From the IMG/VR virus record IMGVR_UViG_2651869755_000011, positions 1 to 5,710 of that record: a DNA stretch of 5,710 nt. One strand, 5' to 3'. A program made the translations under genes and the position numbers. The notes beneath the pieces were generated by a model. That model was not told the DNA's origin. It saw only the letters and a program-made list of their open reading frames with translations, and did no database searches. Shown here in pieces: positions 1 to 5,710 of this stretch. The DNA comes from a virus. Lineage: Duplodnaviria > Heunggongvirae > Uroviricota > Caudoviricetes. Each line of letters starts with the position of its first letter. The stretch's first letter is position 1.

Positions 1-157
1 TATTGCTTACGCCAGAGAAATAACTGGCTGGCTGCTACACCATGTTGCCGGGCAACGAGGGAGACCGTCATCCCTGGTTCAAAGCTCTGCTGAACAATTG
101 CGATCTTTTCCTGTGTGGTACGCCGTCTGCGTTTCTCCGGTCCTAAGACATCAATCA
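1..157 (-). CDS. insC: IS2 OrfA (InsC) transposase regulator, 5' partial (first ~52 codons; rest is outside the window)
   Basis: Minus-strand translation from the ATG at 155-157 gives [52 protein letters not shown], matching the IS2 OrfA N-terminus as I recall it. It is absent from the ORF track because it runs off the window edge. Confidence 0.85.
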
Positions 158-249
158 TCTGCTCTCCAATGACTAGTCTAAAAACTAGTATTAAGACTAT
201 CACTTAAATAAGTGATATTGGTTGTCTGGTGATTCAGGGGGCCAGTCTA
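1..249 (-). mobile_element. IS2 (IS3 family), left end only; the element continues beyond the window start and its terminus is at 249
   Basis: The reverse complement of 231-249 reads TAGACTGGCCCCCTGAATC, which I recognise as the IS2 left terminus. An IS2 OrfA reading frame opens at the minus-strand ATG at 155-157. Identity is from memory of the IS2 sequence, not a search. Confidence 0.9.
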
Positions 250-250
250 G

Positions 251-346
251 AAGTTTTCTAATGGTATTTTGCGTCGTATAGAGAGAGCCGGACCTGATGA
301 TGACTTTTCTTTAGTAAGTATAATGGTGCGTGTGACGTCAGATTAG
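251..346 (+). pseudogene. Orphan 3' coding remnant abutting the IS2 junction; possibly the C-terminus of a gene split by IS2 (by position a candidate late antiterminator Q, unverified)
   Basis: An open frame runs from the IS2 junction (the in-frame TAG at 248-250 lies across the IS terminus) to TAG at 344-346 and encodes KFSNGILRRIERAGPDDDFSLVSIMVRVTSD. It ends immediately before a promoter-like element, which is the Q / pR' arrangement in lambdoid phages. I do not recognise the peptide. Confidence 0.25.
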
Positions 347-376
347 TTGTATAAACCCAGTAGGGAATGCTAATTT
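347..376 (+). promoter_or_regulatory. Candidate sigma70 promoter (pR'-like by position): -35 TTGTAT (347-352), 18-nt spacer, extended -10 TGcTAATTT (368-376)
   Basis: Motifs read directly from the sequence. A second candidate lies just upstream (perfect TATAAT at 319-324). No experimental support. Confidence 0.3.
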
Positions 377-415
377 CCCATACTACAGAGTAAAGAAAAA
401 CTTAATTTTAATGTG

Positions 416-442
416 AAAAGGCTGCTATCAGGCGGCCTTTTT
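416..442 (+). terminator. Putative intrinsic terminator (tR'-like by position)
   Basis: Stem GGCTGC (420-425) pairs with GCGGCC (432-437), including one G-U pair, around a 6-nt loop, followed by TTTTT (438-442) and preceded by an A-run. Confidence 0.45.
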
Positions 443-450
443 ATGTCTGA

Positions 451-783
451 AAAGCTGTGCAGTACGTTAAACACGCTTGTGGTTGTGAATGCCGACTGCG
501 GCGGTATTTTGGCGTGACAGCGCAGGTGCCGTATACCGATGTCTGGACGCATAAACCGGTGCAGTTCTATCCCGGGAAACATCCGTGCGAAAAACCGGCA
601 GAAATGCTGCAGCAGATAATCAGCGCAAGCAGTCGTCCGGGAGACCTGGTTGCAGATTTTTTTATGGGCTCAGGTTCAACGGTAAAAGCGGCACTGGCGC
701 TCGGGCGTCGTGCGATTGGCGTTGAACTGGAGACCGGACGTTTTGAGCAGACAGTCAGGGAAGTTCAGGATTTAATCGTTTGA
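451..783 (+). pseudogene. N6-adenine (N6/N4 family) DNA methyltransferase, C-terminal remnant; the N-terminal catalytic region is missing
   Basis: The 108-aa ORF (457-783, GTG start) contains HPCEKP and DFFMGSGST, which resemble the conserved HPTQKP and AdoMet-binding F-x-G-x-G motifs at the C-terminal end of beta-class amino-methyltransferases. The frame is closed at 448-450 and the 200 bp upstream is noncoding, so no DPPY catalytic motif can be present. Confidence 0.65.
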
Positions 784-832
784 AACGGATGAGATTGCAG
801 AATTAATTACGCACCATTATTATTCTGCTTCC

Positions 833-908
833 GGCCCTTTAGCTCAGTGGTGAGAGCGAGCGACTCATAATCGCCAGGTCGCTGGTTCAAATCCAGCAAG
901 GGCCACCA
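833..908 (+). tRNA. ileZ: tRNA with CAU anticodon, tRNA-Ile2 (lysidine type, AUA decoder) by similarity to E. coli ileX; tRNA-Met cannot be excluded
   Basis: Manual cloverleaf: acceptor GGCCCTT/AAGGGCC, D-stem GCTC/GAGC, anticodon loop CTCATAA (anticodon 866-868), T-arm GCTGG-TTCAAAT-CCAGC, encoded CCA at 906-908. The symbol follows the ileZ-argN-argO cluster described in Stx-type prophages. Confidence 0.85.
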
Positions 909-915
909 TCACATA

Positions 916-992
916 CCGCCATTAGCTCATCAGGAAAGAGCGCCAGCCTTCGAAGCTGGTTGCGCGGAGTTCGGGTCCCCGAAGGCGGTCCA
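916..992 (+). tRNA. argN: tRNA-Arg(UCG)-like, atypical and possibly degenerate
   Basis: Manual fold: perfect 5-bp anticodon stem CCAGC/GCTGG with loop CTTCGAA (anticodon 950-952), canonical U8/A9, D-stem GCTC/GAGC, encoded CCA at 990-992. It also has an A-A mismatch in the acceptor stem, an A-C mismatch in the T-stem and a T-loop of TTCGGGT (G where A58 is normally conserved). Confidence 0.5.
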
Positions 993-1005
993 TTATCTGT
1001 ATCCT

Positions 1006-1082
1006 GCGTTGTTAGCTCAGCCGGACAGAGCAATTGCCTTCTAAGCAATCGGTCACTGGTTCGAATCCAGTACAACGCGCCA
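1006..1082 (+). tRNA. argO: tRNA-Arg(UCU), AGA decoder
   Basis: Manual cloverleaf with perfect acceptor stem GCGTTGT/ACAACGC, D-stem GCTC/GAGC, anticodon stem ATTGC/GCAAT with loop CTTCTAA (anticodon 1040-1042), T-arm ACTGG-TTCGAAT-CCAGT, discriminator G and CCA at 1080-1082. Confidence 0.85.
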
Positions 1083-1097
1083 CACTTATTTTCCCTG

Positions 1098-1121
1098 GCT
1101 CGCTTTTGCGGGCTTTTTTTT
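1098..1121 (+). terminator. Intrinsic terminator directly after the tRNA cluster
   Basis: Stem GCTCGC (1098-1103) pairs with GCGGGC (1108-1113), one G-U pair, loop TTTT, followed by eight T (1114-1121). Confidence 0.6.
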
Positions 1122-1127
1122 AAATGT

Positions 1128-1341
1128 CTCACAATTCAGGCGGTTGACTGTTGTCTGGTTTGCGGGGAGTTTGTTAAAAGAAACTGGCATGGTGAATCCC
1201 CCTGTGCGGAGGGGCAATCAGCGAGTAGGTATATGGGATAATCGCGGATTCAGGTGCTGGTACTGAATTCACCGGGAGGCACCCGGCACCATGCAATGGC
1301 ACATAGCGCCACTCTCCAGCCCCTCTCCGGAGGGGCTTTTC
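1128..1341 (+). repeat. Copy A of a duplicated noncoding module (candidate small-RNA or regulatory unit) ending in an intrinsic terminator
   Basis: Shares ordered blocks with copy B: CTCACAATTCAG, TTGAC(T/A)GTTG, TTTGTTAAAA(G/A)AAA, GCATGGTGAATCCCCCTG(T/A)GCGGAGGGGC, TGAA(T/C)TCACCGGGAGGCACCCGGCACCATG and AGCCCCTCTCCGGAGGGGCTTT. Internal hairpins include CCCCT/AGGGG and CCGGG/CCCGG. Confidence 0.75.
1319..1340 (+). terminator. Intrinsic terminator closing module copy A
   Basis: 7-bp GC-rich stem GCCCCTC (1319-1325) / GAGGGGC (1330-1336), tetraloop TCCG, then TTTT (1337-1340). There is no U-run on the minus strand, so it acts on the plus strand only. Confidence 0.65.
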
Positions 1342-1396
1342 TGTGCCGGATACATCACAGTTTCTGGAACCTTAGGTACTACAGTATCAGTCAGGG

Positions 1397-1405
1397 TGCT
1401 ATATT
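1397..1405 (+). promoter_or_regulatory. Candidate extended -10 promoter (TGcTATATT) for a short transcript ending at the 1532-1558 terminator
   Basis: TG at 1397-1398 and hexamer TATATT at 1400-1405; no convincing -35. About 150 nt downstream is an intrinsic terminator. Confidence 0.3.
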
Positions 1406-1531
1406 TTCAGATGTGATGAAAGCCTGTCAGCAGGCAGGGCGTATCGGAAATGACCCAGTAGAGAAAACGTTGACTCAGATACCGGTGCTGAGTTACCGGG
1501 AAACCGGCATCACATGACCGCTATCCTTCCA

Positions 1532-1558
1532 GGCCCATCCGCTCCGGTGGGCCTTTTT
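1532..1558 (+). terminator. Intrinsic terminator
   Basis: Stem GGCCCA(T)CCG (1532-1541) pairs with CGGTGGGCC (1545-1553), giving 9 bp with one bulged T around loop CTC, followed by TTTTT (1554-1558). Confidence 0.6.
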
Positions 1559-1595
1559 ACTGCAGAAAACAGGTTCCCCGTTAAATGCTATGTTG

Positions 1596-1829
1596 CTCAC
1601 AATTCAGTAAGTTGACAGTTGCCTGTCAGACTGGGCATTTGTTAAAAAAATTTCGCATGGTGAATCCCCCTGAGCGGAGGGGCGACTGGTGACGGTATAA
1701 TCTCTGATTATCAAAACGAGAATGACGCGGGTTTAGTGGCACCGGGCTGAACTCACCGGGAGGCACCCGGCACCATGTGCATGATGATACAGATACGCGG
1801 CTTTAGCCCCTCTCCGGAGGGGCTTTCTT
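1596..1829 (+). repeat. Copy B of the duplicated noncoding module, ending in an intrinsic terminator
   Basis: Same ordered conserved blocks as copy A, with variable sequence between them. It contains a perfect TTGACA (1612-1617) inside the palindrome TGACAG-N4-CTGTCA (1613-1628) and a perfect TATAAT (1696-1701). Confidence 0.75.
1806..1829 (+). terminator. Intrinsic terminator closing module copy B
   Basis: Stem GCCCCTC (1806-1812) / GAGGGGC (1817-1823), loop TCCG, then TTTCTT. Confidence 0.6.
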
Positions 1830-1835
1830 ATGGAC

Positions 1836-1864
1836 AAAAAAAGCCCGCGCTGGGAGACGCGGGC
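1836..1864 (-). terminator. Minus-strand intrinsic terminator, convergent with the copy-B terminator
   Basis: 7-bp stem GCCCGCG (1843-1849) / CGCGGGC (1858-1864) with an 8-nt loop. On the minus strand the hairpin is followed by seven U (plus-strand A-run 1836-1842); there is no U-run on the plus side. Confidence 0.5.
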
Positions 1865-1932
1865 GGCAAGGAATAAACAATAAAACGTGAAGTAATATTT
1901 CAGCTGGCGAATAATACCCCATAGTAATCACT

Positions 1933-1955
1933 CTGCGCAACTGCGCGGTCTTTTT
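1933..1955 (+). terminator. Intrinsic terminator-like hairpin upstream of the esterase gene
   Basis: Stem CTGCGC (1933-1938) / GCGCGG (1943-1948) with one G-U pair, loop AACT, followed by TCTTTTT (1949-1955). Confidence 0.45.
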
Positions 1956-2057
1956 CGAATTGCGGGCTGTAGTCTCCCTTCTGCCATTGTCCTGTAACTT
2001 CCGGACTTCAGCCTGCTCCTTATCTGACTCACAACATTATCCCGCCCGGGAGGATTC

Positions 2058-3911
2058 ATGGCATTTAAACACTATGACGTGGTCAGGGCGGCATCGCCGT
2101 CAGACCTTGCGAAACGACTGACACAAAAACTGAAGGAGGGCTGGCAGCCGTTTGGTAGTCCGGTGGCCATAACCCCTTATACCCTGATGCAGGCGATTGC
2201 AGCAGAAGGTGATGTGGTCGTCAGTGGTGCAACTGAGCCGGAGTGGTACTACGTCATCGTACTGGCCGGGCAATCCAATGCCATGGCTTACGGTGAAGGG
2301 CTTCCGCTTCCGGATTCATACGATGCGCCCCATCCGCGCATTAAGCAACTGGCCCGTCGTAACACAGTGACTCCCGGTGGTGAAGTATGCGTATTTAACG
2401 ACATCATTCCTGCTGACCATTGTCTGCATGATGTTCAGGATATGAGTACGATTAACCATCCCCGGGCTGACCTGAGCAAAGGGCAGTACGGCTGTGTCGG
2501 ACAGGGCTTACATATTGCCAAAAAACTGCTTCCGTATATCCCTAATAATGCGGGGATCCTGCTGGTACCATGCTGTCGTGGTGGTTCGGCATTCACCCAG
2601 GGCACGGAGGGGACATTCAGCGAGTCCACGGGAGCCAGTCAGGATTCGGCTCGCTGGGGAGTGGGTAAGCCGTTATATCAGGATCTGCTTTTCCGCACGA
2701 AGGCAGCATTGCAGAAAAACCCGAAAAACGTTTTGCTGGCGATATGCTGGATGCAGGGGGAATTCGATATGACGAATGCCAGTTACGCCCAGCAGCCAGC
2801 AGCATTTCTTGCAATGGTACAGCAGTTCCGTGCTGACCTTGCCGGGCTGGCAGCGCAGTGTCACGGTGGAAGTCCGGCATCAGTCCCCTGGATTTGTGGC
2901 GACACGACATACGCGTGGAAACAAGAACACGGTACGCAATATGAAGTGGTATATGGTGCATATAAAGGTAAAGAATCCCAGCAGATTTATTTTGTTCCCT
3001 TTATGACCGATGGTAGCGGAGTTAATACACCGACAAACAACCCGTCAGAAGATCCTGATATTGTCGGGTCTGGTTATTACGGTTCGGCATCCCGAACGAA
3101 CAAAAACTGGGTATCATCAAATCGCCCGACGCATTTCAGCTCATGGGCGCGTCGTGGCATTATTCCCGATCGTATGGCAACTGCTATTCTGAACGTAGCC
3201 GGTCGCACCTTAGCCTTCATTAGTGGTAAGGCACCGGAAATCAAACTCTCGCCCGGCGGCGACACGCCATCGGGGCCGTCTGAAGATGCATCCATACGCA
3301 CAATCTCCCTGTTGCCGACAGCCGGAGACGCTGCTGCGCAGGGCTGGAGCATTAAGAATGGCGGAATTCAGTTGTCAGATGGTGTATTTAAGATCACCAA
3401 GCAGAGCAATAAAGCCTGGTCCCTGACGCGCCCGGTGGATGACGCAGTCTCCCTGCTGACACGGGGTGGCAGACTGAGCTGTAAGTTTCGACTGTCAGGC
3501 GCACTGACCAACAATCAGTTCGGTCTGGGAATTTATCTGTATACCGATGTAGCGTTACCTGACGTCGTGGCGATGACCGGGACTGGTAACCCGTTCCTGA
3601 TGTCGTTCTTCACCCAGACCACAGACGGCAAACTGAATCTGATGCATCACAAGAAAGCAGGAAACACAAAGTTGGGCGAGTTCGGGAATTACAGTAACGA
3701 CTGGCAGACGCTGGAGCTGGTGTTCACCGCCGGCAGTGCCACGGTTACTCCGAAACTGAATGGAGTGGCTGGCCCGGCATTCCAGGTCATAAAAGACAGT
3801 CTGACACTGGGGCTGAATGCGCTGACGCTGACGGATATTACCAAAAATGCAGCGTATGGCGTTGAGATAGAAAGTCTGGTGCTGGAGATAAATGCACCGG
3901 CATCATCATAA
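2058..3911 (+). CDS. nanS-p: Prophage-encoded sialate (N-acetylneuraminate) O-acetylesterase, NanS-p-like: N-terminal DUF1737-like region, SGNH/SASA esterase core, long C-terminal domain of unclear function
   Basis: 617-aa ORF with SD GGGAGG 7 nt upstream of the ATG. The N-terminus MAFKHYDVVRAASPSDLAKRLTQKLKEGWQPFGSPV and the esterase block I motif VIVLAGQSNAMAYGEG (putative catalytic Ser73) match the NanS-p family of EHEC prophages as I know it. The position after the tRNA cluster and before the holin is typical. Confidence 0.88.
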   Translation: MAFKHYDVVRAASPSDLAKRLTQKLKEGWQPFGSPVAITPYTLMQAIAAEGDVVVSGATEPEWYYVIVLAGQSNAMAYGEGLPLPDSYDAPHPRIKQLARRNTVTPGGEVCVFNDIIPADHCLHDVQDMSTINHPRADLSKGQYGCVGQGLHIAKKLLPYIPNNAGILLVPCCRGGSAFTQGTEGTFSESTGASQDSARWGVGKPLYQDLLFRTKAALQKNPKNVLLAICWMQGEFDMTNASYAQQPAAFLAMVQQFRADLAGLAAQCHGGSPASVPWICGDTTYAWKQEHGTQYEVVYGAYKGKESQQIYFVPFMTDGSGVNTPTNNPSEDPDIVGSGYYGSASRTNKNWVSSNRPTHFSSWARRGIIPDRMATAILNVAGRTLAFISGKAPEIKLSPGGDTPSGPSEDASIRTISLLPTAGDAAAQGWSIKNGGIQLSDGVFKITKQSNKAWSLTRPVDDAVSLLTRGGRLSCKFRLSGALTNNQFGLGIYLYTDVALPDVVAMTGTGNPFLMSFFTQTTDGKLNLMHHKKAGNTKLGEFGNYSNDWQTLELVFTAGSATVTPKLNGVAGPAFQVIKDSLTLGLNALTLTDITKNAAYGVEIESLVLEINAPASS

Positions 3912-3996
3912 AAAGTGAGCCAGCCAAATGGAAGGTATCGTTAAACTCACCGGTAGTGTCAGTGGGTCGTCTGAGATGCCTGCATGAGTTATCAGA

Positions 3997-4026
3997 GCCA
4001 TCAGTACTTAACTGGTGGCTTTTTTT
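3997..4026 (+). terminator. Intrinsic terminator between the esterase gene and the holin
   Basis: 8-bp stem GCCATCAG (3997-4004) / CTGGTGGC (4012-4019) with one G-U pair, 7-nt loop, followed by TTTTTTT (4020-4026). Confidence 0.5.
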
Positions 4027-4061
4027 ATTGTTGTCAGCTTCCGGATAACGGGAGACGGGGT

Positions 4062-4277
4062 ATGTACCAGATGGAAAAAATCACAACAGGTGTGTCATAC
4101 ACCACGTCAGCGGTGGGAACGGGCTACTGGTTCCTGCAGTTGCTGGACAGGGTTTCCCCGTCTCAGTGGGCGGCAATAGGCGTGCTGGGGAGTCTGCTGT
4201 TTGGGCTGCTGACATATCTGACTAACCTGTATTTCAAAATCAGAGAGGACCGTCGTAAGGCTGCACGGGGAGAGTAA
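4062..4277 (+). CDS. S: Class II holin (phage 21 S-type pinholin), 71 aa, with dual-start motif MYQM (Met1 at 4062, Met4 at 4071)
   Basis: [71 protein letters not shown] closely resembles the phage 21 S protein as I recall it, with two hydrophobic segments and a charged C-terminus. SD GGAGACGGGG lies upstream. The ORF-track start at 3984 would add an N-terminal extension that overlaps the upstream terminator and has no RBS. Confidence 0.85.
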
Positions 4278-4281
4278 TTCA

Positions 4282-4626
4282 ATGACTCAAAACTATAAAC
4301 TGATTGTGAAAGGGATCCGCAATTTTGAGAATAAAGTTACGGTAACTTTAGCGTTACGGGACAAAAAACGCTTTGACGGTGAAATTTTTGACCTGGACAT
4401 CTCGCTGGACCGTGTTGAAGGTGCCGCGCTGGAGTTTTATGAGGCAGCAGCCAGAAGGAGCATCAGACAGGTCTTCCTGGATGTTGCTGCCGGGTTATGT
4501 GAAGGGGATGAGCAGTCGCCGGAAAAGCGCCCCGTAATTTTAGAGGCGCAGGATGTGTTGATAACCTACAGAGGAAAACTACCGGGAATAATTACGGGTT
4601 CTCTGAAGAGTCCGCCGAAATGGTAA
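4282..4626 (+). CDS. Hypothetical 114-aa protein inserted between holin and endolysin (function unknown; possibly comparable to the uncharacterised genes found between S and R in some E. coli prophages)
   Basis: ATG at 4282 is 4 nt after the holin stop, with SD GGGGAGAG at 4267-4274, so it is translationally coupled to the holin. The sequence looks like ordinary coding sequence. I do not recognise the protein. Confidence 0.6.
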   Translation: MTQNYKLIVKGIRNFENKVTVTLALRDKKRFDGEIFDLDISLDRVEGAALEFYEAAARRSIRQVFLDVAAGLCEGDEQSPEKRPVILEAQDVLITYRGKLPGIITGSLKSPPKW

Positions 4627-4864
4627 TTTTACCAGCATATTTTTCATCCAGTAATACAGCAAGCCGCCTGAAAGAGTCTTGTTGTTCCTGAGACCATTTG
4701 GGATTGCATGATTCAAACTGGATTGATGCCAGCGTTGATTGCATCTGTTCCCTTGGAATTGAGAATGCCAGATATGAGAAGGCGACGGTAAGGGTATTCA
4801 CGTCTTCCCGAAGCCTGGAAATGCTGTCGAGCAACTCCTGTAGAGAAATGGTGTTATTGTCCAT
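4592..4864 (-). CDS. Possible 90-aa hypothetical protein on the opposite strand, convergent with and overlapping the 3' end of the 114-aa ORF by 35 nt
   Basis: Minus-strand ATG (4862-4864) is preceded by SD GAGGA at 7-nt spacing. A promoter-like pair lies upstream on the minus strand (TTGCCT, 19-nt spacer, TACAAT). It fills most of an otherwise unexplained 343-bp gap between ORF114 and the endolysin. No recognisable homology. Confidence 0.4.
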   Translation of the reverse strand: MDNNTISLQELLDSISRLREDVNTLTVAFSYLAFSIPREQMQSTLASIQFESCNPKWSQEQQDSFRRLAVLLDEKYAGKITISADSSENP

Positions 4865-4896
4865 AAATAATCCTCATGATTGTATTGACCTGTTAG

Positions 4897-4916
4897 CAGC
4901 CTGAGGCAACAGGCTG
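4897..4916. promoter_or_regulatory. Perfect 7-bp inverted repeat CAGCCTG-N6-CAGGCTG between the putative minus-strand gene and the endolysin; candidate operator
   Basis: Read directly. There is no U-run on either side, so it is unlikely to be a terminator. It overlaps the -35/spacer of the putative minus-strand promoter. Confidence 0.3.
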
Positions 4917-4969
4917 GAACTGATAAACATATCCAGGGCTCAGAAACCGATAAATCCTGATAAATATCC

Positions 4970-5623
4970 ATGAACGCAAAAATCAGATACGGCCTGTCGG
5001 CTGCCGTTCTGGCGCTGATTGCCGCTGGTGCGCCTGACATTCTCGACCAGTTTCTGGATGAAAAGGAAGGTAACCACACCACGGCATACCGTGATGGCGC
5101 GGGTATCTGGACCATCTGCCGCGGTGCCATCCTGGTGGATGGCAAACCTGTCGTTCCGGGCATGAAGTTGTCGAAGGAAAAATGCGACCGGGTTAACGCC
5201 ATTGAGCGTGATAAGGCGCTGGCATGGGTGGAGAAAAACATCAAAGTGCCATTGACCGAACCCCAGAAAGCGGGGATCGCGTCATTCTGTCCGTACAACA
5301 TTGGTCCCGGTAAGTGTTTCCCGTCGACGTTTTACAGACGAATTAATGCTGGCGATCGCAGGGGAGCATGTGAGGCGATTCGCTGGTGGATTAAGGACGG
5401 TGGCAGAGACTGCCGTATTCGTTCAAATAACTGCTATGGACAGGTCTCACGGCGTGACCAGGTGAACCGCCCCGGGTTTCCTGGAGAGTATTTTATCTGT
5501 GAACTCAGGCTGCCAGATCATCGTTTCCGATGGAAGCATAATAAGCTTTTTCTGCTTCTGCCGGAGGAGTATGGCCCAGCCTTTCCAGCAATCGTCGATT
5601 GTTATACCAGTCCACCCACGTGA
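4970..5623 (+). CDS. R: SAR-type phage endolysin (T4-lysozyme-like muramidase, phage 21 R type), 3' end disrupted by IS insertion: codons 1-164 (4970-5461) are native, the last 53 codons are IS-derived
   Basis: N-terminal signal-anchor-release segment MNAKIRYGLSAAVLALIAAGAP, catalytic E33/D42/T48 spacing (E-8x-D-5x-T) and overall similarity to phage 21 R. The frame runs straight from ...YGQVSRRDQ into the IS terminus TGAACCGCCCC at 5463. Family members are about 165-185 aa, so roughly 10-15 native C-terminal residues appear to be replaced. Confidence 0.8.
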   Translation: MNAKIRYGLSAAVLALIAAGAPDILDQFLDEKEGNHTTAYRDGAGIWTICRGAILVDGKPVVPGMKLSKEKCDRVNAIERDKALAWVEKNIKVPLTEPQKAGIASFCPYNIGPGKCFPSTFYRRINAGDRRGACEAIRWWIKDGGRDCRIRSNNCYGQVSRRDQVNRPGFPGEYFICELRLPDHRFRWKHNKLFLLLPEEYGPAFPAIVDCYTSPPT

Positions 5624-5710
5624 GTGTGGCCAGTTCCACTTCTGCACGGTTTTTCCAGCTCTTACGGTGTATTACCTCCGCTTTGTAAAGACCATTGATG
5701 CTCTCCGCCA
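5463..5710 (-). mobile_element. IS629/IS1203-like IS3-family element, right end only (continues beyond the window end), inserted into the endolysin gene
   Basis: Terminal inverted repeat TGAACCGCCCCGGGTTTCCTGGAGAGT at 5463-5489. The minus strand encodes the C-terminus of an IS3-family OrfB transposase ending LERLGHTPPAEAEKAYYASIGNDDLAA, which I recognise as IS629-like from memory. Confidence 0.85.
5505..5710 (-). CDS. IS3-family transposase OrfB, C-terminal fragment (5' part outside the window)
   Basis: Minus-strand translation AESINGLYKAEVIHRKSWKNRAEVELATLTWVDWYNNRRLLERLGHTPPAEAEKAYYASIGNDDLAA with stop codon at 5505-5507 (TGA on the minus strand). Confidence 0.85.
   Translation of the reverse strand, partial: AESINGLYKAEVIHRKSWKNRAEVELATLTWVDWYNNRRLLERLGHTPPAEAEKAYYASIGNDDLAA

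Follow-up and report, generated by a model that had tools for sequence, protein, structure and literature searches.

A predicted three-domain NanS-p sialate O-acetylesterase in an insertion-sequence-bounded stretch of a lambdoid Escherichia coli prophage

We analysed a 5,710-nucleotide (nt) stretch of viral DNA, hereafter the window (IMG/VR record IMGVR_UViG_2651869755_000011, positions 1 to 5,710), and the gene nanS-p within it. From its homology, the product is predicted to be an ordinary NanS-p with three domains; this sialate O-acetylesterase of lambdoid E. coli prophages is already known, and its family has been studied since 2014. We consider it very probable that this protein, expressed late and released by lysis, would de-O-acetylate sialic acids through Ser73 and His359 and be targeted to sialoglycans by a lectin-like C-terminal module. 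The open reading frame (ORF) is present exactly as it was given in an earlier note, which had been made from the letters of this DNA. PHROG 143 matches the entire protein (E=0), and Pfam finds three domains in its 617 residues that exceed the curated cut-offs, with E values from 1e-12 to 2e-19; these matches lie far beyond chance expectation. Every defining feature of NanS-p that a sequence can reveal was found: DUF1737, a SASA/NanS-like SGNH core, DUF6645 and a location in the late region. The ORF shows 0 nt differences from three E. coli loci (L001, L002 and L006) and its product is RefSeq WP_000874518.1, labelled 'SASA family carbohydrate esterase'; the exact protein (P0047) belongs to a 90%-identity cluster of 3161 sequences. 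An NCBIfam scan of the protein returned no significant match.

Domain architecture and catalytic site

The esterase was identified by three comparisons. Residues 59-379 match E. coli NanS/YjhS (3PT5) in a PDB sequence search with E=2.2e-122, the Pfam family SASA (PF03629) matches residues 66-262 (E=1.4e-12, 48.2 bits against a cut-off of 24.8), and Foldseek matches 3pt5 with E=1.4e-26 and 57% identity in the structural alignment. NanS uses Ser19 and His301 for catalysis, without a catalytic Asp, and holds Gln18 in the oxyanion hole (PMC9063846). In the HMMER alignment, Ser73, His359 and Gln72 correspond to NanS Ser19, His301 and Gln18 with a constant offset of 11. We aligned the window protein with ten phage NanS-p proteins and found that G71, Q72, S73, N74 and H359 are invariant wherever they are covered across the 11 sequences; by our count His359 is covered by 10 phage homologues, and the truncated fragment from phage 2851 stops short of it. 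The features of the NanS subtype of SGNH enzymes are thereby all present, namely the block I Ser, the oxyanion-hole Gln, the block V His and the lack of a catalytic Asp. The ratio of nonsynonymous to synonymous substitution rates (dN/dS) of the esterase is 0.08-0.16 overall, and 0.15-0.16 in comparison with phages YYZ-2008 and 434, for which dS is 0.74-0.79 and unsaturated.

The last ~200 residues adopt the lectin-like jelly roll of DUF6645 that was solved for the NanS-p of phage phi24B. Pfam assigns DUF6645 to residues 467-577 (E=2e-19), residues 421-613 match the 218-residue PDB chain 'NanS-p' (6YP6, E=4.3e-30), and the model predicted for the C-terminal domain is a lectin-like jelly roll. 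A crystal structure of the corresponding phi24B vb_24B_21 domain has been available since 2020 (PDB 6YP6; Franke et al., as cited in PMC10462455 and PMC8065619). In an exhaustive HMMER search, the DUF6645 family proved to be small, with 59 clusters at E<=1e-3 among 1.84 billion representatives. DUF6645 was always paired with DUF1737 and/or SASA, and these 59 clusters held no architecture beyond DUF1737 with or without SASA plus DUF6645. A homologue search with the C-terminal domain alone recovered almost only E. coli fragments, and a search of BFVD for its fold brought up generic ConA-like phage proteins and nothing else. Purifying selection acts on the domain less strongly than on the esterase (dN/dS of 0.26-0.27 against YYZ-2008 and 434, with dS ~0.2).

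Outside the family, the closest fold is the sialic-acid-binding lectin domain of the Vibrio cholerae sialidase (PDB 2W68 / 1W0O), at 14-15% sequence identity. We take that lectin domain to be a member of carbohydrate-binding module family 40 (CBM40); what the window protein shares with it is a likeness in fold, and not family membership. By analogy, we infer that the jelly roll may be a carbohydrate-binding module that tethers the enzyme to sialoglycans.

These results refine what the earlier note had said about the protein. Its proposal of a NanS-p-type esterase is upheld by the SASA match and by the retained catalytic serine. It had placed the esterase core in the first half of the protein; the GQSN motif is indeed there (residues 71-74, nt 2268-2279), and the domain itself (residues 59-385) proved to be the middle 53%, preceded by 58 residues of DUF1737 and linker. 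From the peptide PGGDTPSGPSEDASIRT (residues 399-415) onward the note had counted ~250 C-terminal residues, which is the right region at the wrong length: 219 residues run from P399 to the protein end, and the folded domain covers residues ~414-617. The function that the note had left unassigned there belongs to a named family, Pfam DUF6645, with a crystallised phi24B homologue. Its guess of a lectin-like or carbohydrate-binding module agrees with the fold and is already in the literature.

We also observed three proteins (P0099, P0073 and P0079) in which NanS-p domains are fused to tail-fibre (PF07484, PF03406) or molybdopterin oxidoreductase domains; these may be artefacts of assembly or gene calling, or fusions mediated by insertion sequences (IS).

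Function, release and selection

For substrate, binding and regulation we draw on characterised homologues. The enzyme would remove 7/8/9-O-acetyl groups from sialic acids of the Neu5,9Ac2 type (neuraminic acid with 5-N-acetyl and 9-O-acetyl groups) on mucin glycans. In EDL933 and O104:H4, the NanS-p alleles have esterase activity and support growth on Neu5,9Ac2 (and mucin) (PMC8065619, a review); all statements made here on experimentally tested alleles come from reviews. Transcription of nanS-p would arise by Q-dependent read-through from pR', and nanS-p expression rises upon phage induction (PMC10462455), which is consistent with Q-dependent late expression. The window protein has a hydrophilic N terminus, no signal peptide and no membrane segment (its maximum 19-residue hydropathy is 1.27), and release therefore requires lysis. 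It would leave the cell only in this way, whether as free protein or, as in phi24B, held on the capsid surface by DUF1737.

Several observations weigh against this account. The residues preceding the catalytic His are Pro-Thr (RPTH), compared with Ala-Ser in phage 933W and Ser-Ser in NanS; RPTH, which is seen in phage 86, was reported as the sole atypical variant among Stx2a phages (PMC10462455). The full-length AlphaFold2 model is poor in the esterase, with predicted local distance difference test (pLDDT) values of 30-40 at residues 73-148 and 317-366. This is because the alignment is shallow, and the assignment of the esterase therefore relies on sequence homology, with only the model of the C-terminal domain being used. 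The esterase activity of this allele is, in the same way, a prediction from its homologues. The putative binding site of phi24B consists of four aromatic residues, Y510, Y515, Y540 and F611 (PMC10462455). Three of their counterparts in the window protein have kept an aromatic side chain (F488, Y493 and F518), and the fourth is Leu584. Carbohydrate binding by the C-terminal domain is so far a proposal for all members of the family (PMC8065619). Finally, the lysozyme gene R is truncated in the window and both Q and pR' lie outside it, and expression and release of this particular copy are therefore uncertain.

The enzyme could instead act on the bacterial surface, where de-O-acetylation of O-antigen or capsular polysaccharide would aid phage adsorption or release. 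This has been raised as a possibility (PMC8065619), and a location on the virion would place the enzyme suitably. We regard it as improbable: no other homologue comes nearly as close as the sialate-specific NanS (57% identity, Foldseek), the NanS-p alleles that were tested act on sialic acids, outside the family the C-terminal domain most resembles a sialic-acid-binding lectin in fold, and nothing in this analysis points to a polysaccharide substrate.

A separate matter is why the gene is intact. The earlier note had pointed out that nanS-p survives while the flanking genes R and, possibly, Q are hit by IS elements, and had taken this as a sign of selection for the cargo and not for the phage. 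The hit in R is real: the gene is cut at ~5462/5463, 35 nt ahead of its normal stop, with loss of the last 11 codons. Q lies outside the window, and the IS on the left instead cuts a PP2C phosphatase gene, of which the last ~100 nt adjoin the IS end as a 3' remnant; in the closest relative, L002, Q is interrupted by an IS at a locus outside the window. On the note's reading, host-level selection keeps a moron-type esterase intact in a decaying prophage, to the benefit of the bacterium, through O-acetylated sialic acids, and not of the phage. That NanS-p alleles allow enterohaemorrhagic E. coli (EHEC) to grow on Neu5,9Ac2 and mucin (PMC8065619) speaks for it, as do the frequency of the gene (a nanS-p match in 2393 of 5426 complete E. 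coli genomes, at up to 13 places per genome), a dN/dS below 1, and the damage itself, with IS ends on both flanks of the window and a truncated R.

We nevertheless find host-level retention unlikely. Relatives without these two IS insertions match the ORF at 100% and the 5.2-kb block around it at 99.8% identity; hence the insertions are very young, and no decay would be expected. By its construction, the window is what two IS ends enclose, and if two insertions fell at random in 5219 nt, both would spare a 1854-nt gene ~42% of the time. Relatives tolerate an IS ~0.8 kb upstream of the gene (L001), and damaged copies exist: in phage 2851 (Stx2c; L008 20001-21938) nanS-p is split into two ORFs, and several complete E. 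coli genomes (H113-H120) hold only a ~350-nt internally deleted remnant in which the DUF1737 end is joined to the 3' end. The gene has therefore not been kept everywhere. As the protein has no signal peptide and R is truncated, a host would benefit only via lysis by another prophage, and the phi24B orthologue is a virion protein. Selection is purifying in all domains (dN/dS below 1); gene frequency and purifying selection fit a benefit to host or phage alike and do not discriminate between them. By analogy with the structural role in phi24B, the dichotomy of 'cargo, not phage' no longer seems safe. The case that the note had made from the intact gene thus falls, and the window offers a worked example of why 'intact between IS hits' is a weak argument for selection. 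In our account, the copy in this IS-damaged prophage would be a young, still-intact allele, the intactness of which is probably uninformative on selection.

The gene could also be functionally silent, a passenger in a defective prophage with impaired late transcription and lysis, its ORF still there for no other reason than its youth. The IS ends on both sides, the truncated R, the 100% identity of the allele to its relatives and the interruption by IS elements of Q, terminase and phosphatase genes in the closest relative all agree with this. We hold it to be somewhat unlikely, since only the last 11 codons of R are lost and since Q and lysis genes of other lambdoid prophages could act in trans (nanS-p is found at a median of 2 and a maximum of 13 places per genome); Q, pR' and the remaining prophage lie beyond the window, so silence cannot be shown.

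The DUF1737 anchor loop and capsid head modules

In phi24B, cryo-electron microscopy (cryo-EM) and proteomics identified the orthologue, gp84, as a capsid-decorating protein that is among the most abundant in the virion (preprint 10.64898/2026.04.10.717836). According to the same preprint, its DUF1737 forms hexamers that are plugged into the central hexons of a T=9 capsid with Tyr42 as an anchor, and its esterase and jelly-roll domains are shed by slow autoproteolysis, with the interdomain linker as the reported site; SSP-containing linker motifs (SISSP after Gly54) were proposed for this autoproteolysis, an assignment that is tentative. The primary role of the window protein may likewise be structural, a reading that we rate as possible and short of probable. 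DUF1737 would anchor the protein on the capsid hexons of a lambda-type siphovirus, and esterase and lectin would bind and edit mucus sialoglycans from the particle in the manner of Hoc, as an 'adherence to mucus' function, possibly with later proteolytic release. This is compatible with the lysis-released sialate esterase that we favour, and the two are not mutually exclusive.

Set against 12 phage homologues from GenBank, the window protein shows 84-97% identity to each over residues 1-31, and dN/dS for this segment is 0.12-0.17 in siphoviral copies, such that DUF1737 is kept under purifying selection there. Over residues 32-58, the sequences separate into distinct types. One of them, type A (YGSALISTAGYGAEFIQPVV...SISSP), is found in 933W, phi24B, 86, P27, STEC1589 and AU6Stx1, all of which carry heads of the phi24B type or are members of Traversvirus. 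Another, type B (FGSPVAITPYTLMQAIAAEG), is shared by the window, YYZ-2008, 2851, Stx1_14744, Stx2a_1447 and WGPS6, with a variant in 434, and type C occurs in VT1-Sakai. The body of the protein is shuffled with respect to the loop: phage 86 combines loop A with an esterase and C-terminal domain of the window type (95% and 97% identical, respectively), Stx2a_1447 and WGPS6 combine loop B with a body of the 933W type (95-100%), and VT1-Sakai joins loop C to such a 933W-type body. Highly conserved patches, residues 1-31 and the GQSN region, flank the anchor-loop cassette.

A census of 160 IMG/VR loci recovered only these three loop types (B in 107, A in 23 and C in 17), which together account for 147 loci. 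The downstream head module could be classified in 66 loci, or 57 after dereplication. Loop A stands beside heads of the Traversvirus type (7) or Pankow type (1), loop B beside heads of the lambda type (42), Pankow type (7) or VT1-like type (1), and loop C beside VT1-type heads (8). Measured by mutual information, loop type explains 58% of the entropy of head type, compared with 36% for the type of the C-terminal domain; the part of the gene that encodes the C-terminal domain is physically nearer to the head genes than the loop, yet its association is weaker. This would look like the pattern expected of a capsid adaptor. The loci are not phylogenetically independent, and the association may partly reflect shared descent. 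In relatives of the window prophage, the head and tail genes form a classical lambda module (Nu1, A, W, B, C, D, E through J), and heads of the lambda type accompany 32 of the 34 IMG/VR loci that have a window-type gene and a classifiable head.

There are two exceptions. Locus L169 has loop A beside a Pankow-type head and L145 has loop B beside a VT1-like head (70-78% identity); these could be genuine recombinants or neighbouring prophages on one contig. We had also considered a strict 'lock and key' relationship of one loop to one capsid and rejected it, as loop B occurs with lambda-type and Pankow-type major capsid proteins (MCPs), which have no BLASTP similarity to each other, and in view of the two exceptions.

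The structural role thus draws on the phi24B cryo-EM and proteomics, the purifying selection on DUF1737 in siphoviral copies, and a loop type that tracks the head module while the body is shuffled (57 dereplicated IMG/VR loci and 13 GenBank phages). Two distant relatives, P0169 (294 residues) and P0184 (440 residues), also join DUF1737 directly to DUF6645 without an esterase, an architecture that fits a role in virion display for the C-terminal domain. On the other side, the role was demonstrated only for a T=9 podovirus, and lambda-type heads already carry gpD. Loop B is common to two MCP families without sequence similarity (lambda gpE-type and Pankowvirus-type), L169 and L145 break the pattern, and shared descent may account for part of it. 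The window loop is also 3 residues and the linker 11 residues shorter than in phi24B. Tyr41 lies in the window loop, but MAFFT does not align it with the phi24B 'tooth' Tyr42, and the alignment is ambiguous. No SSP or SISSP motif was found in the linkers, which read DVVVSGATEPE on the N-terminal side and KLSPGG...TPSGPS only on the C-terminal side.

On balance, we tentatively suggest that the anchor loop (residues 32-51) might be a head-specific adaptor, and that NanS-p might be a capsid-displayed decoration protein in most lambdoid phages, the window prophage included, instead of a moron. Virion display in this lambda-type phage, to which the phi24B result is carried over by analogy, seems to us conceivable to the same degree. 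If it is true, the many nanS-p copies of E. coli would be virion genes with host benefit as a by-product, and the enzyme would be part of the interaction of lambdoid particles, including those of Shiga toxin (Stx) phages, with gut mucus, with consequences for how phages spread and toxin genes move in the intestine. Were NanS-p virion-borne in general, its account as a metabolic gene that prophages supply for EHEC growth on mucin would need revision. The association of loop and head is the sole part of this work that we did not find in the literature consulted on NanS-p; the gene itself adds nothing new.

Genomic neighbourhood and known systems

The window comes from a lambdoid E. coli prophage, and nanS-p sits there in the late operon, between a tRNA and small RNA (sRNA) region and a holin-lysozyme cassette (Table 1). 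The order in the window is tRNAs, two STnc100 copies, nanS-p, holin, YdfR-family gene and R; the layout of tRNAs, (stx), nanS-p, S and R is the same in 933W, phi24B and phage 86, where nanS-p lies downstream of stx.

Table 1. Features of the window and of the NanS-p protein that it encodes
Feature	Position (nt)	Residues	Strand	Evidence or remark
IS3-family element end, transposase N terminus reading leftward	1..249		-	100% identical to L002 6001-6249, annotated IS3 family transposase
DNA methyltransferase pseudogene, site-specific, 5'-truncated	457-783		+	same stretch in RefSeq: 'missing N-terminus'; adjoins tRNAs upstream
Three phage tRNA genes: CAT anticodon, Arg-TCG, Arg-TCT	833..1082		+	ileZ-argN-argO type cluster, which precedes stx in Stx phages
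Two copies of prophage sRNA STnc100	1158-1348 and 1626-1835		+	Rfam RF02076, 136 and 165 bits (gathering score, 47)
nanS-p ORF	2058..3911	617 plus stop	+	ATG start; full-length match to PHROG 143
DUF1737 domain	2064..2207	3-50	+	Pfam PF08410, E=1.3e-15, 57.4 bits against a cut-off of 24
Variable anchor loop, type B FGSPVAITPYTLMQAIAAEG, and short linker	2151..2231	loop 32-51, linker 52-58	+	alignments, loop census
NanS-type SGNH (type II) sialate O-acetylesterase domain (predicted)	2232..3212	59-385	+	3PT5, Pfam SASA, Foldseek, dN/dS
Gln72 (oxyanion hole) and Ser73 (nucleophile), GQSN block	2271..2276	72-73	+	alignment to NanS, codons checked
His359, catalytic base, block RPTH	3132..3134	359	+	alignment to NanS His301
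Pro/Ser/Gly-rich interdomain linker AFISGKAPEIKLSPGGDTPSGPSEDASI	3213..3296	386-413	+	pLDDT <50 for residues 384-413
C-terminal DUF6645 lectin-like beta jelly-roll domain	3297..3908	414-617	+	presumed non-catalytic carbohydrate-binding module
Class II holin	4062-4277		+	lysis cassette
YdfR-family gene	4282-4626		+	lysis cassette
Lysozyme R	4970-5462		+	truncated by IS
Second, different IS3-family element end, in R	5463..5710		-	99.6% identical to IS copies in L001 and L002
Transposase C-terminus ORF of second IS	5505..5639		-	ORF list

The IS3-family element on the left is presumably IS2-like. In L002, a close relative, an IS sits 117 nt from the left junction of the window. Insertion into R created a chimeric ORF of 217 residues (4970..5623). 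We considered whether the window might be a composite transposon, with the same IS at both ends, and rejected this because the two ends come from different IS3-family elements.

The first tRNA gene (833-908) is called as Met (CAT) by ARAGORN, and the identical RefSeq gene is annotated as tRNA-Ile; it is presumably of the ileZ type, the annotation given in 933W and phi24B, and would read AUA once modified with lysidine. The STnc100 copies form a tandem with a spacing of ~470 nt, and the same terminator stem closes both (1318-1337 and 1805-1824). Directly upstream of nanS-p, the pair fills the slot that is held by stx in Stx phages. STnc100/PasD has been linked to the sialic-acid esterase locus (preprint 10.64898/2026.05.13.724894). 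The 150-nt spacer between nanS-p and the holin gene (3912-4061, + strand) contains a strong terminator-like hairpin (3994-4022) followed by a T-run and is 99.4% identical to its counterpart in phage 86. Related prophages are reported to have PasA/PasC sRNAs at this place; scanning the spacer against Rfam by E value gave nothing credible, leaving an sRNA of the PasA/PasC type unconfirmed here.

Among known systems, capsid decoration proteins with glycan-binding modules, such as T4 Hoc, are an analogy taken from the phi24B preprint. If the phi24B result carries over, the window protein would be, like Hoc, a non-essential display on the capsid surface that interacts with mucus; Hoc binds as a monomer, in contrast to the DUF1737 hexamer in hexon centres, and the two have no sequence or fold relationship. 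E. coli NanS (YjhS, 3PT5) is homologous to the window esterase end to end (residues 59-379) and shares the Ser-His dyad without Asp and the oxyanion Gln. It is the catalytic domain alone, beginning at about residue 55 of the window protein, without DUF1737 and without the C-terminal jelly roll.

The phi24B protein vb_24B_21/gp84 is the counterpart of 933W L0105 (z1466), and 6YP6 is its C-terminal domain. Its identity to the window protein is 70% for the esterase, 35% for the C-terminal domain and 15% for anchor loop and linker. The window protein is 28 residues shorter, has no SISSP, and carries Leu584 where phi24B has F611. Whereas phi24B has the T=9 capsid of a podovirus, relatives of the window have a lambda-type, T=7-style head module. 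Two features of the phi24B class of decoration proteins, the T=9 head module and the SSP motif, are thus missing, and the window protein would be no more than a candidate member of that class, although it may work in the same way.

The 616-residue NanS-p proteins of YYZ-2008 (an Stx1 phage) and 434 have the same three domains and the same place upstream of the holin gene, with esterases that are 83% and C-terminal domains that are 87-88% identical to those of the window. YYZ-2008 shares the type B loop (96% identity over residues 32-58) and 434 has a diverged variant (63%). The NanS-p of the Stx2-converting phage 86 (YP_794050.1) also has the same three domains, at 95% identity in the esterase and 97% in the C-terminal domain, likewise lies directly before the holin gene in the order given above and shares the RPTH block. 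It differs in its phi24B-type (A) loop, with an N-terminal segment that is 14 residues longer and 15% identity over residues 32-58. Stx phages such as 86 also carry upstream the stx operon, in place of which the window holds its two STnc100 copies.

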